Part shown: positions 1 through 2,379 of the stretch, one piece after another
How positions within the stretch are numbered: the first letter of the stretch is position 1
Layout: each line of letters opens with the position of its first letter
IMG/VR virus record: IMGVR_UViG_2645727868_000009
Length of the DNA: 34,486 bases
From: a virus
Taxonomy: Duplodnaviria > Heunggongvirae > Uroviricota > Caudoviricetes
Direction: 5' to 3' (one strand)
Program-made: the position numbers and the translations under genes
The notes under the pieces: generated by a model
Databases searched by the model: none
Told to the model about the DNA's origin: nothing
Seen by the model: only the letters and a program-made list of their open reading frames with translations

Positions 1-2379
1 TCACTGGCCAGACAGCGATGCCAGCATGAAATAATGCAGCTCATCATTCCTTACAGACATTATTTCACCAGCCTCCCTGACCAGCTTGCGCTCTCCGGTA
101 TCGTATTCTTCCATTGTAAGGAGTCCGTCAGAACCAAGCTCCATACGAGTCCCGTAAACCACTTCATATTCCGCCGGATATTCATCACGACACAAAATAC
201 CGTAATCAAAAGCGTCCAGCCCTTCCTCAGAGAAGACCTTCTGTACGTCCTGAGCAATCACTCCTACATGCCATCTGGCTGCGTTCCCTTTGCTGGACAC
301 TGCATCCCTGAAACGGAACCGACAGATATACCCGAGCAGCTTTCTGGCAACCCTTTTTTCTGCATCCGACAGAATTGTTTCGTCCTGTTTATGAGTCCGG
401 TCTGATGTACTGATACTTCCCGTAGCTGAATAAACCTGTGCGGGTCGCCATGAGGCATAACCGATCGAATACGTATTATCTGTATAAGGGCGGAGATTTC
501 CTGATGAATCTATGCGCCATCTCTTTTCTCCTCCTGTGGCATTTGCATCCTGATTCGTTGCAAAATCAATCACTGTCGCTGACCTGAACACAGATGAACC
601 ACCGCCAATTACCAGCGTGTTATTCCCCTCTGATGCCTGTTGGTCAACTACCAGTATTTTATCCTGATTTTTACCTGAACCACTTTTCGAGGCAGCGATA
701 ATACGATTAAACTGATCCTCACCATCGCTCTTTTGTGCGATGGTGATAACATTGGACCAGATTGCCTCTCTTTGTCGCTGAAAACCATATTCTCCGCTGT
801 CTGTAGTGACAGCTTTATATTTTATTCCACCTTCAGCTGACTCCTGCGTTATATAGAATGTCTGGTTATTAGCATTCTTGATGAACACATAATTGTCAGC
901 AGGAATGTCATTTCCACTCAGATCTTTAATCGGTGTCGTGGTTGTATGCAGACAAAACCATTTCTGACTCACAGAACGCATATATGCCAGAATTTCAGAC
1001 AGGGATGTGAATACCGTCCCCAACACCGGGTTTACCAACCCCTGGGCACTACGGGGAAATGTTCCAATACTGGCATGAGACACATCAAACCCCGTGTACA
1101 ACCAGGCTGCCTGACGAAAATCAATAGCATCTCTGCCAGTACTGAACTCTTTCATCAGAACAATTCCTTTCTGATAAGCCTGTGGTAACCCACGCTCCAG
1201 AAAGATATAAAGCGAATATATACTGCCGCCGTCGTCAGAAATACAAATTCCTTCGTTCTCAATGCGCGAAGGTGCAAAACCCTGCCTGGTAAGCACATCT
1301 ATCATTTTTTGGGGATGAAGAATGGATTCCTGCTGCTTTACTCCATCCGGAGAAAAGACCTTAACCCCCTGAAACTGGTTAAATCCGGCTGATGCCCCGG
1401 TATTAAAATAGCCACCATAAGAACAGGCAATATAATCGTCTCCCACAGCAATTCCCTGACGTTTTGTGAAGCGTCTTGCATAGCTGTCTGTGCTTTCCGT
1501 GATATATCCGGAATCATGCAACGGTAATGTGAATGTCCCTGTCCGACGAAACTGAAAATCATACACCGCAAATACTGTGCGGGTGATCAGGCCTCCCACT
1601 TCCGGCGCTGACTGTTCAACCACCCAGCGGTTTTTACGATAGCTGAACTGGTTGTAAACACCGACATCATGTTCATCAATTAACGGCAATACTGAACCAG
1701 AAATTGCCCCATCAAGCGAAAACTGTTTCAGTAATCCATTTTCTCCTGACATGAACAAACGTAATCCACCGTAATCCGTTGTCACCACAAGGCCTTCGCT
1801 GACAACGCCACGACCTCCATTATCGACATAATAATATCCCTCATATTCGCCGGATGTTGTGTACTGAACTATAACGTTCCGTGTCTGCTTTGGCTCAACG
1901 GTATAACTCAGATAGATTTTTTCTCCTGTCACCACAAATCCCTGTGGATACATATATTCCGCACCAGACTGAGCAGCCAGCACCGTATCGTAGTCCGGGA
2001 ATAATAACGGCAATTCCATTAAGACACTACGGGAATGGTTAGTGTACAGATTGTTCAATGAACCAGCTTTTACATCCTGTAACCCCAGATTTTCAAGAGC
2101 GCGTTCTACCGTGCCATCCGATTTGATATCGCCAAACGGATTCTTGCGGCTTAACAGCAGCGCACGAAGCGCGGTAAGTAGCTGATCCGTTTTTTGGGGG
2201 GCAGGTTGAATATGTACACTACCAAGAACATTAAGGAGTTCCTGCTGTAAATCACGGGTTGCCCCCTGCTGATTGTTTAAATAATCAGCAGTTACGATGG
2301 TTCCTTCTATCCCCTGAGTGGGGTCACCATCATGAAACAATTGATCCGGTGTATTTATCGGGGGCATCAGATTTTGCAT
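1..2379 (-). CDS. Tail fibre protein with C-terminal intramolecular-chaperone (peptidase S74-like) domain
   Basis: 792-aa ORF, ATG at 2377-2379 preceded by GGAGGAG, TGA stop at 1-3. Last ~130 aa ([18 protein letters not shown]...[13 protein letters not shown]) resemble the autoproteolytic chaperone module of phage fibres/tailspikes. Lies directly after baseplate genes. Start overlaps upstream stop (TAATG). Confidence 0.7.

Follow-up and report, generated by a model that had tools for sequence, protein, structure and literature searches.

A probable foreign receptor-binding cassette with an S74-type chaperone in place of the invertible fibre block of a Mu-like Escherichia coli prophage

Introduction

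In phage Mu, the fibre genes S/U and S'/U' lie in the invertible G segment, together with a separate chaperone and the Gin invertase. A different arrangement is offered by intramolecular chaperones of the S74 type, which occur in T5 pb1, in the K1F endosialidase and in phi29 gp12. For T5 pb1, a catalytic site consisting of D1239, R1250, T1263, S1264 and K1269 has been proposed, in which the upstream Asp and Arg (D1239 and R1250) sense the correct folding of the trimer (PMC4690869). Close relatives may differ in this respect: among BASEL Teseptimavirus phages, the fibre either ends in an intramolecular chaperone or is followed by a separate, Mu-like Tfa gene (PMC11990801).

Here we describe the distal tail gene of an E. 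coli prophage, which is located at the end of a stretch of 34,486 nucleotides, the whole of which is referred to as the window. All features described below lie on the minus strand, and negative positions denote DNA past position 1.

Results

The gene for the receptor-binding tail protein (1..2379) is complete according to the list of open reading frames and its translation, and matched PHROG 1171 ('tail spike protein', E 1.4e-127). It forms one intact frame of 792 aa (87.7 kDa), the ATG start codon of which overlaps the TAA stop codon of the upstream gp48-like gene (TAATG) and is preceded by the ribosome-binding site AAGGAGGAG. The fibre gene is the last gene of the prophage and its stop codon occupies window bases 1-3. 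The original prediction, made from the sequence alone, had described the distal tail gene as a single 792-aa protein and the window as ending with its stop codon, and was correct on both counts.

A C-terminal module resembling an intramolecular chaperone or autoprotease had also been predicted, based on the motif SDRTHKQDE (aa 659-667). The proposed HMM search located Pfam PF13884 (Peptidase_S74) at aa 659-721, with an E value of 1.3e-9 and 38.6 bits (cut-off 22) over the full model 1-58. The prediction was further substantiated by PDB sequence matches to T5 pb1 (4uw8), phi29 gp12 (3gud) and the K1F endosialidase chaperone (3gw6), and to 7y5s, 9vvr and 6eu4, with E values of 1e-17 to 4e-9. In Foldseek comparisons, the AF2 model matched 4uw8 (E 3.5e-8) and 3gw6 (E 1.5e-7). 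The domain comprises aa 659-792 (15.3 kDa; 4..405) and shows in the monomer model the fold expected for S74, namely three helices (672-718), the strands of a beta-hairpin tentacle (729-776) and a C-terminal helix (778-790), at a pLDDT of about 50-82. In the phmmer alignment with T5 pb1, the residues D634, R645, T658, S659 and K664 occupy the positions of D1239, R1250, T1263, S1264 and K1269; all five catalytic-site residues are thus conserved. The released chaperone chain of phi29 gp12 (3gud) begins with SDERHK and aligns to S659, and the pattern S-D-x-x-x-K is kept in all seven chaperone-bearing homologues (7/7). Judging from these alignments, autoproteolysis would take place at T658-S659. 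The predicted scissile bond corresponds to positions 403-408 and K664 to 388-390, and cleavage would yield products of 72.4 and 15.3 kDa. The fibre presumably trimerises.

The central part of the protein is dominated by a five-bladed beta-propeller 'platform' domain (aa 116-430; 1090..2034), which follows a helical stem as in phi11 Gp45 and is presumed to bind the receptor. The best structural matches of the propeller, by a clear margin, were the non-enzymatic platforms of Staphylococcus receptor-binding proteins (RBPs). Neither a six-bladed sialidase propeller nor an endosialidase catalytic domain was found in the fibre. We infer that the propeller is the receptor-binding part. It is followed by a small alpha/beta domain, possibly tower-like (aa 447-535; 775..1041; AF2 pLDDT about 65-77), which is conserved in 10/10 homologues, for example in the NANN motif at 503-505. 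A beta-rich stretch (aa 556-658; 406..714) precedes the cleavage site; its residues 606-658 align with the pb1 region in front of the T5 cleavage site, and it is probably an intertwined trimeric region folded by the chaperone. The AF2 monomer model was poor for aa 1-112 and 535-668, and the trimeric stalk lies outside the model. Relatives of the propeller-plus-chaperone module were observed in lytic phages of the genus Kayfunavirus and, at a greater distance, in Staphylococcus phages.

The origin of these parts differs. The N-terminal baseplate-anchor part (aa 1-99; 2083..2379) belongs to the lineage itself and corresponds to the constant 'Sc' part of Mu S: a weak homology links aa 4-103 with Mu S 12-112 (31% identity, E 9e-7), and PHROG matches to tail-fibre N-termini fall on this part. 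Down to position 2081, the window shares 94% nucleotide identity with the Mu-like prophages of E2348/69 and GF75. Codons 100-792 belong to a foreign cassette (1..2080, continuing to 106 bp past position 1), recognized by its identity to ST131. From -106 to 2187, that is over 2294 bp, the DNA shares 99.7% identity with the fibre of an SfV/e14-like ST131 prophage, the gp48 protein of which is only 27% identical to that of the window; homology to the Mu-like relatives breaks at 2081 and -107. E2348/69 and GF75 are the closest Mu-like relatives and retain 94% identity in the baseplate genes alongside the fibre and at the prophage end. At the position of the fibre, they carry a G-segment-like S-Tfa/Tfa'-S' block, in which a fibre/chaperone pair occurs in both orientations, flanked by gix/hix-type inverted repeats of 19-20 nt. 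These comparisons show the swap directly and support the original suggestion that the host-recognition module came from another phage lineage; the swap covers codons 100-792 and 106 bp of 3' flank, but not the native N-terminal 99 aa. A terminator-like hairpin lies in the 3' flank of the cassette (L001 11963-11991).

Of 5426 complete E. coli genomes, 58 carried the cassette, in every case at an identity of at least 99%. In strain R4, positions 1-2080 were 99.9% identical, compared with 97.0% for the adjacent backbone of the same prophage (2188-4034); the closer match of the cassette therefore indicates a recent spread. The Mu-like family was carried by 59 complete genomes, and six genomes held the gp48-plus-fibre region (at least 80% of 1-2951). 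Three of these six (SCAID, AZ146 and AVS0151) matched the query 1-2951 at a second place, and SCAID and AZ146 showed two places with the cassette-only query as well; the additional place is possibly a second copy of the cassette.

The AT-richness noted by eye is real, but does not start with the fibre gene. With a GC content of 0.461 (GC3 0.427), the fibre gene is more AT-rich than the 17 genes for tail and head measured from baseplate J onward (GC 0.51-0.61, GC3 0.56-0.71), but not more so than the adjacent gene for a gp48/YmfQ-type baseplate wedge protein (2379..2951; Pfam PF10076 Phage_Mu_Gp48, E 1.4e-30), which is equally AT-rich (GC 0.462, GC3 0.387). The latter gene is native to the lineage; the E2348/69 relative has it at 94% conservation and with a GC content of 0.464. 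Since this native gene and the N-terminal part of the fibre are AT-rich too, AT-richness alone does not mark the swap. The GC content of the cassette (0.457) also contrasts with that of the ST131 baseplate genes (0.55-0.58; tape measure 0.52). In composition, the cassette fits neither backbone, so both may have taken it from a third source.

The 5' junction falls into a conserved stretch of 107 bp (2081..2187; aa 65-99/100), the crossover zone as delimited by the homology limits and by alignment. This stretch is common to the Mu-like relatives, the ST131 prophage fibre and phages of the SfV/SfI/SfII/SfIV type; SfV-family phages match 2081/2090-2187 at 88-94%. In the alignment of 2081-2187, the window is of mixed parentage. 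A pattern search revealed a degenerate gix/hix-like site at 2075..2092, AAATCTGGGGTTACAGGA, which encodes ENLGLQD. In E2348/69, the 19-nt inverted repeat occupies the same position. The site is similar to the gix site of Mu, TTATCCAAAACCTCGGTTTACAGGAAAC (taken from AF083977): the right half-site agrees with Mu gix at 10/12 positions, and the central dinucleotide and the left half-site are degenerate. Being present in a single copy, the site is probably a relic. A 16-nt pair, 2077-2092/3089-3104, involves this site but was dismissed as coincidence, since its second member lies inside the baseplate J gene and 0.16 chance matches are expected.

E. coli Ec55 is 100% identical to the window and shows the DNA past position 1. 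There, non-coding DNA extends for about 200 bp from the fibre stop codon to the end of the prophage, beyond which lies the host gene ypdF, which is disrupted. The prophage end was fixed by two independent insertion sites, ypdF in Ec55 and the prohead-protease gene of another prophage in SCAID WND1; in Ec55, the flanking bases that might represent a 5-bp target-site duplication read CAGCG at one end and AGCGG at the opposite end. Between the fibre stop codon and the prophage end (~200 bp), no ORF of more than 29 aa and no separate gene for a tail-fibre assembly chaperone were found. No invertase (Gin/Pin/Cin/Hin) is annotated between the ends of the Ec55 prophage, the sole recombinase of which is a MuA-like transposase. 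The window held no second, inverted fibre and chaperone set with inverted gix sites, and within 1-4500 the only inverted repeats were short, imperfect pairs. The extension beyond position 1 thus revealed neither a gin-like gene nor a Mu-type invertible segment, which are also missing elsewhere in the prophage, and the view of the fibre as non-Mu-type held: no invertase, separate chaperone or alternative fibre follows it.

The prophage is only a distant relative of Mu, and no cultured phage has a transposase more than 50% identical to its own. A near-identity DNA search with the structural region (2380-22000) against 50,697 phage records gave no match, so there is no cultured close relative for comparison. 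The same search with the fibre region matched only the conserved stretch of about 100 bp in SfV-type phages.

Discussion

We consider it probable, at roughly 85%, that the fibre is a three-part chimera and the sole receptor-binding protein of a transposable Mu-like myovirus prophage, that it is chaperoned by its S74 domain, and that a foreign cassette has replaced the invertible block. In the proposed picture, residues 1-99 would be the lineage's own baseplate anchor, residues 100-658 a foreign module composed of a short helix, a five-bladed propeller of the phi11 Gp45 type, a small domain and a beta-rich trimerisation stretch, and residues 659-792 the S74 intramolecular chaperone. The three C-terminal domains would trimerise first and serve as template for the folding of the preceding intertwined beta-structure. 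Upon correct folding, R645 of the neighbouring chain, together with D634 and T658, would complete the active site, K664 would activate S659, the T658-S659 bond would be cut, and the 15-kDa chaperone would leave the mature 72-kDa protein on the baseplate. A separate tail-fibre assembly protein would be unnecessary in such a self-chaperoning route. The ancestor of the prophage probably bore an invertible-type S-Tfa/Tfa'-S' block. The 5' exchange would then have occurred by recombination inside the conserved 107-bp stretch, and the 3' exchange at an undefined junction just before the transposase-binding end of about 100 bp. The incoming 2.2-kb AT-rich cassette would be one that is also in circulation, with hardly any changes, among the SfV/e14-like prophages of ST131 and related E. 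coli. We infer the direction of this transfer.

The automated annotation seems to contradict a functional fibre. The NCBI pipeline (PGAP) splits the ORF in Ec55, SCAID and ST131 4433 into a pseudo 'gp53-like' fragment and a 672-aa CDS, which implies a non-functional fusion or pseudogene originating from illegitimate recombination; a NCBIfam scan of fibre and gp48 found no family, and a curated model is thus missing for the fibre. We regard a pseudogene as extremely unlikely and reject the split as evidence for it, since the frame is uninterrupted (792 codons here, 791 in ST131) and its start is translationally coupled, with a strong ribosome-binding site. The catalytic residues are all kept, the 90%-identity cluster of the fibre holds 365 full-length sequences, the cassette junction lies inside a conserved in-frame stretch, and the prophage has recently transposed to different sites. 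The split is probably an artefact of annotation to which the chimeric structure gave rise. Genes of lytic coliphages raise a different question, namely whether the central domain is a polysaccharide-degrading enzyme and the protein an enzymatic tailspike instead of a purely binding fibre. Kayfunavirus and other such lytic coliphage genera often target capsules, and homologues of the fibre occur among them; homologues with 37% identity are labelled 'endo-N-acetylneuraminidase' in several phage records. Moreover, D129, E195, E255, R372, E374, E376, E411 and D420 are invariant across ten homologues, and five-bladed propellers include the GH43/GH32 hydrolases. However, no catalytic family of Pfam, the endosialidase propeller included, was detected at E <= 0.01, the sequence matches to endosialidase PDB entries were confined to the chaperone region (aa 591-783), and the top structural matches are non-enzymatic. 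The endosialidase reading suggested by the labels was rejected on these grounds, the sialidase label being most simply explained by transfer from the shared S74 domain, and an enzymatic tailspike of any kind appears rather unlikely. That the propeller might be an undescribed enzyme modifying surface glycans is a speculative reading.

The receptor-binding chimera could also have arisen by other routes. Recombination by a Din-family invertase at the gix-like site, in place of homologous recombination in the conserved stretch, would account for the exact end of the Mu-like homology at the 19-nt crossover repeat (L008 4887-4905; break at 4894) and for the gix-like sequence retained in the window with its well-matching right half-site. 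We nevertheless judge this capture improbable: the identity to ST131 reaches as far as 2187, 107 bp upstream of the site, the mixed parentage of 2081-2187 is what homologous exchange predicts, no partner site exists at the 3' boundary, the only other match (3089-3106) lies in baseplate J and is chance-like, and the prophage combines a degenerate central dinucleotide and left half-site with the lack of an invertase. In a wider and quite speculative version, which we think unlikely, the conserved stretch with its gix/hix-type site (…ALENLGL…) would be a docking point common to Mu-like and SfV/e14-like prophages, where Din invertases acting in trans from co-resident prophages also capture foreign, non-invertible receptor-binding cassettes such as the present one; if true, invertase sites would be an engine of host-range cassette exchange. 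The order of events might even be reversed, with the chaperone-type fibre ancestral in the Mu-like lineage and the S-Tfa/Tfa'-S' block of E2348/69 and GF75 acquired later. Composition alone does not polarise the change, given that gp48 and the fibre N-terminus are as AT-rich as the cassette, and the STEC307 relative carries yet another fibre, so the position has been replaced repeatedly. Such a reversal is very unlikely, since the gp48-plus-fibre region occurs in only six genomes compared with 59 for the Mu-like family, the cassette is at least 99% identical everywhere whereas the Mu-like backbones differ by 3-16%, and the gix-type relic at the junction can be understood only if the invertible segment was there before the cassette. 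The numbers so far point to derived, scattered carriers and to a divergence of the cassette far below that of the backbone.

Replacement of the invertible block by homologous exchange, as favoured here, makes the locus an unambiguous, if ordinary, instance of the exchange of host-range modules in phages, and the current understanding of phage biology is unchanged by these findings. The locus provides a base-pair-level example of a temperate phage changing its host-recognition device: a 2.2-kb cassette with its own folding chaperone and terminator stands in place of a four-gene invertible block, and the exchange took place at a short conserved sequence common to two unrelated prophage families. 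With its chaperone built in, the cassette needs no matching assembly gene to work, which may explain its easy movement between backbones. Many carriers of the nearly invariant cassette are ST131-type clinical isolates, which makes the cassette a candidate receptor-binding module with which such strains could be targeted. As long as automated annotation breaks the gene into a pseudogene and a fragment, it will escape surveys of prophage host-range genes.

One of the closest known systems is the fibre of the SfV/e14-like ST131 prophage, there annotated as a stfP fragment and a 'tail fiber domain-containing protein'. The two proteins differ by only 3 substitutions in residues 65-792, whereas the first 64 residues are about 30% identical, the gp48/YmfQ proteins 27%, and the ST131 backbone is of another, non-transposable prophage type. 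The propeller is of the type found in phi11 Gp45 and in the RBPs of 80alpha, P68 and NF5, although the identity to phi11 itself is only 11-13%. E. coli is devoid of wall teichoic acid, so the ligand of the fibre must differ from the GlcNAc on this polymer, which cannot be the receptor in a Gram-negative host. The fibre also has another N-terminal anchor and bears a C-terminal S74 chaperone, which Gp45, as described, does not possess (PMC4901313).

With T5 pb1, K1F endosialidase and phi29 gp12, the fibre shares the C-terminal PF13884 domain of about 134 aa, the scissile Thr-Ser with a Lys five residues downstream, the upstream Asp and Arg at aligned positions, and a preceding beta-rich trimeric stretch homologous to pb1. 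The domain is attached to a five-bladed propeller RBP here, in contrast to the bullet domain of pb1, the six-bladed propeller and beta-prism of the endosialidase and the beta-helix of gp12; its carrier is a transposable myovirus prophage, and its cleavage is predicted. As in Mu, the fibre gene follows gp48 as distal tail gene, its product shows weak homology to Mu S over the N-terminal ~100 aa, a gix-like sequence encoding NLGLQ marks the junction of constant and variable parts, and close relatives of the prophage retain an S-Tfa/Tfa'-S' block with inverted repeats. Unlike Mu, the window is without a separate chaperone gene, alternative fibre segment, second gix site or invertase, and the distal 693 residues of the fibre are unrelated to Mu S. 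The alternation between chaperone and Tfa that distinguishes the window from E2348/69 is the same as in the BASEL Teseptimavirus phages. The latter are lytic podoviruses, whereas in the present case a temperate transposable myovirus has probably had its invertible-type double cassette replaced.

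The fibre gene and its prophage

The fibre gene occupies positions 1-2379 of the window on the minus strand. It is an uninterrupted reading frame of 792 codons with an ATG start and its stop codon at window bases 1-3. The ATG overlaps the TAA stop codon of the preceding gene (TAATG), and a ribosome-binding site, AAGGAGGAG, is located just upstream. Moving upstream from the fibre, the genes encode Mu gp48, gp47 (baseplate J), gp46, gp45, gp44, a DNA-circularisation protein and the tape-measure protein. The window has a 100% identical counterpart in a prophage of E. coli Ec55. The rest of this element contains a repressor, a ner-like gene, a MuA-like transposase, a MuB-like ATPase, Mor, lysis genes and Mu-like head genes; it is a Mu-type transposable phage to which Mu itself is only distantly related. 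The identity of the transposase to that of any cultured phage was at most 50%, and no near-identical DNA match to the structural region was present among 50,697 phage records. A DNA methyltransferase gene (21451-22191) lies between the genes for a DUF1804 (small-terminase-like) protein and the large terminase, and a Mom/Com-type modification module is absent from the right prophage end, its place in Mu.

In Ec55, the RefSeq/PGAP annotation splits the intact fibre frame into a 672-aa CDS and a 'gp53-like' pseudogene fragment (H0X92_RS26910 and RS26655), which we consider an artefact. In strains ST131 4433 and SCAID WND1-2021, its counterparts are listed as a CDS of 326 aa together with an stfP or hypothetical pseudogene. 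Mis-annotation of this chimeric gene is systematic.

The Ec55 prophage disrupts ypdF, and a 99.97% identical prophage in SCAID WND1-2021 is inserted into another prophage, within its prohead-protease gene (L004 2196-2798, the locus in that strain). The two sites indicate recent transposition and show that resident prophages can be inactivated. Homology between both strains starts at window position -201, at TGTAACTTCGCG..., which therefore marks the prophage end (negative positions were read in Ec55). Repeated (C)GCCCAGAAT-type motifs, among them a palindromic pair at -173..-116, occur in the Ec55 regions at both prophage ends (L001 11799-11900 and L002 8240-8402) and are probably transposase binding sites. 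Mu ends read TG...CA. The flanks of the Ec55 element contain a candidate 5-bp target duplication of ambiguous reading, CAGCG vs AGCGG.

The original prediction placed the fibre outside a Mu-type invertible arrangement, and the sequence beyond the stop codon agreed: the prophage ends after about 200 bp, which include a terminator-like hairpin directly 3' of the stop codon and no ORF longer than 29 aa. An invertase was not annotated anywhere in the Ec55 element, and window positions 1-4500 lacked substantial inverted repeats.

The C-terminal chaperone domain

A self-cleaving chaperone module had been proposed for the fibre C-terminus, and profile and structure-database searches recovered an S74 chaperone domain there. 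Pfam PF13884 (Peptidase_S74) matched aa 659-721 across the full model with 38.6 bits (cut-off 22). A phmmer search against PDB sequences retrieved 4uw8 (T5 pb1 including the chaperone; E 9e-17), 3gud (the chaperone released from phi29 gp12), 3gw6 (the chaperone of K1F endosialidase) and three further tail proteins. SDERHK at the start of the 3gud chain pairs with S659-K664. In the alignment to pb1, D634, R645, T658, S659 and K664 take the positions of D1239, R1250, T1263, S1264 and K1269, which were proposed as catalytic site and folding sensor of the T5 protein (PMC4690869). The S-D-x-x-x-K motif was conserved in all seven domain-bearing homologues, and putative cleavage at T658|S659 would yield products of 72.4 and 15.3 kDa. 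The AF2 model, a monomer based on a ten-sequence alignment and unreliable outside aa 113-535 and 669-792, exhibited the expected helices, hairpin and terminal helix in the S74 region, with Foldseek matches to 4uw8 and 3gw6.

The fibre belongs to a small sequence family of ten 90%-identity clusters in a search of 5.8 billion proteins. Rahnella versions of the module are joined to P22-type head-binding N-termini. Homologues in cultured phages came from two Kayfunavirus genomes (46% identity), various coliphages and Salmonella phages (about 37%) and Staphylococcus phages (25-30%). The label endo-N-acetylneuraminidase in several of these records was unsupported: no sialidase Pfam matched, and sequence similarity to endosialidase in the PDB was restricted to the chaperone region.

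Exchange of the fibre module

The host-recognition module was expected to originate from another phage lineage, and a near-identical counterpart was found in one. An SfV/e14-like prophage of ST131 4433 has a terminal fibre gene, an intact 791-codon ORF, that is 99.7% identical to window -106..2187 (2294 bp), while Mu-like relatives carry an unrelated block at this place. The two fibre proteins are identical from residue 65 onward except for three substitutions; their first 64 residues share about 30% identity and the neighbouring gp48/YmfQ proteins 27%. The nearest Mu-like relatives, in E2348/69 and GF75, are 94% identical to the window from the baseplate genes down to position 2081, where similarity is lost until it resumes at -107..-206, the prophage end. 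The foreign cassette thus comprises window 1-2080 (codons 100-792) and 106 bp of 3' flank.

Positions 2081-2187 are common to the window lineage, the ST131 fibre and the Mu-like relatives, and also to SfV, SfI, SfII and SfIV; in the alignment, this stretch of the window has mixed parentage. The 5' junction is most simply explained by homologous recombination within this stretch, and the 3' one directly precedes the conserved prophage end of about 100 bp.

In the gap, E2348/69 and GF75 have genes for a fibre of 249-253 aa and a tail-fibre assembly protein and, in the opposite orientation, a second assembly gene and second fibre C-terminus. This S-Tfa/Tfa'-S' block (L008 2808-4905 in E2348/69, L009 2845-4905 in GF75) has the architecture of the Mu G segment and is flanked by 19-20-nt inverted repeats, AAACGTTGGTTTGGGAGAA / TTCTCCCAAACCAAGGTTT. 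The repeats resemble Mu gix as read directly from the Mu genome record, and those of E2348/69 we take to be Din-type sites by their likeness to hix and gix sequences. Over the roughly 180 bp that separate the block from the end of the prophage, no invertase gene is present; the segment would have to be inverted in trans by the invertase of another prophage, or be frozen. At the place of the relatives' repeat, the window retains a degenerate single-copy gix-like site (2075-2092, AAATCTGGGGTTACAGGA) that encodes ENLGLQD, the Mu counterpart being QNLGLQE. A baseplate J sequence at 3089-3106 (AAATCTGGGTTTCCAGTT) gave a 14/16 inverted match to this relic (2077-2092); as a partner site it was judged a chance match, with 0.16 pattern matches expected per window.

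A relative in STEC307 (L010 2063-5156), 86% identical in the baseplate genes, shows yet another, third layout, with a fibre of 267 aa, a Tfa gene, a further protein of 567 aa labelled 'prophage tail fiber N-terminal domain' and a DUF4376 protein. Evidently, the site following gp48 is a replacement hot spot.

Base composition

The fibre gene had been described as more AT-rich than the upstream tail genes. Its lower GC content was confirmed (GC 0.461, GC3 0.427, compared with 0.51-0.61 and 0.56-0.71 in the 17 tail and head genes from baseplate J onward), but the step sits one gene further upstream, as the gp48 gene (2379-2951) is equally AT-rich (GC 0.462, GC3 0.387). In the window as in E2348/69, a GC content of 0.45-0.46 applies to the native gp48/YmfQ gene and fibre codons 1-99 (2083-2379). 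Baseplate J, upstream of them, has 0.55; an older exchange may have imported a whole wedge-adaptor-plus-fibre unit. The cassette (GC 0.457) also differs in a sharp step from the ST131 baseplate genes (0.55-0.58) and is therefore foreign to both backbones. Separately, the early/middle region (about 24500-31000) has a GC content of 0.47-0.50 vs 0.54-0.61 in the structural genes and holds accessory genes of lambdoid type (ead/Ea22-like, DUF4752, DUF2786), an indication of further mosaicism.

Distribution and transfer

Of 5426 complete E. coli genomes, 58 carried the cassette (1-2080), each with at least 99% identity, mostly behind an stfP-type N-terminus, and in some cases behind the Mu-like N-terminus of the window or others. 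The Mu-like family (2188-4034) occurred in 59 genomes with 84-100% identity, and matches in six genomes covered at least 80% of the window's gp48-plus-fibre region. The fibre-region query matched at two places in each of three Mu-like carriers. Identity of the strain R4 cassette is 99.9%, vs 97.0% for the adjacent backbone (2188-4034). Taken together, the findings indicate that the cassette moved recently, and possibly more than once, between co-resident prophages; we assign no direction to this transfer.

Comparison with known systems

Self-cleaving chaperone domains on fibres and spikes are established, as are the modular exchange of receptor-binding proteins and the alternation of chaperone-type and Tfa-type fibres in sister phages (PMC4690869; PMC11990801). 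What distinguishes this locus is that three features occur together: in enterobacterial phages, an S74 chaperone attached to a phi11-type propeller; the residence of such a fibre in a transposable prophage; and an invertible-type block that was replaced at its crossover site.
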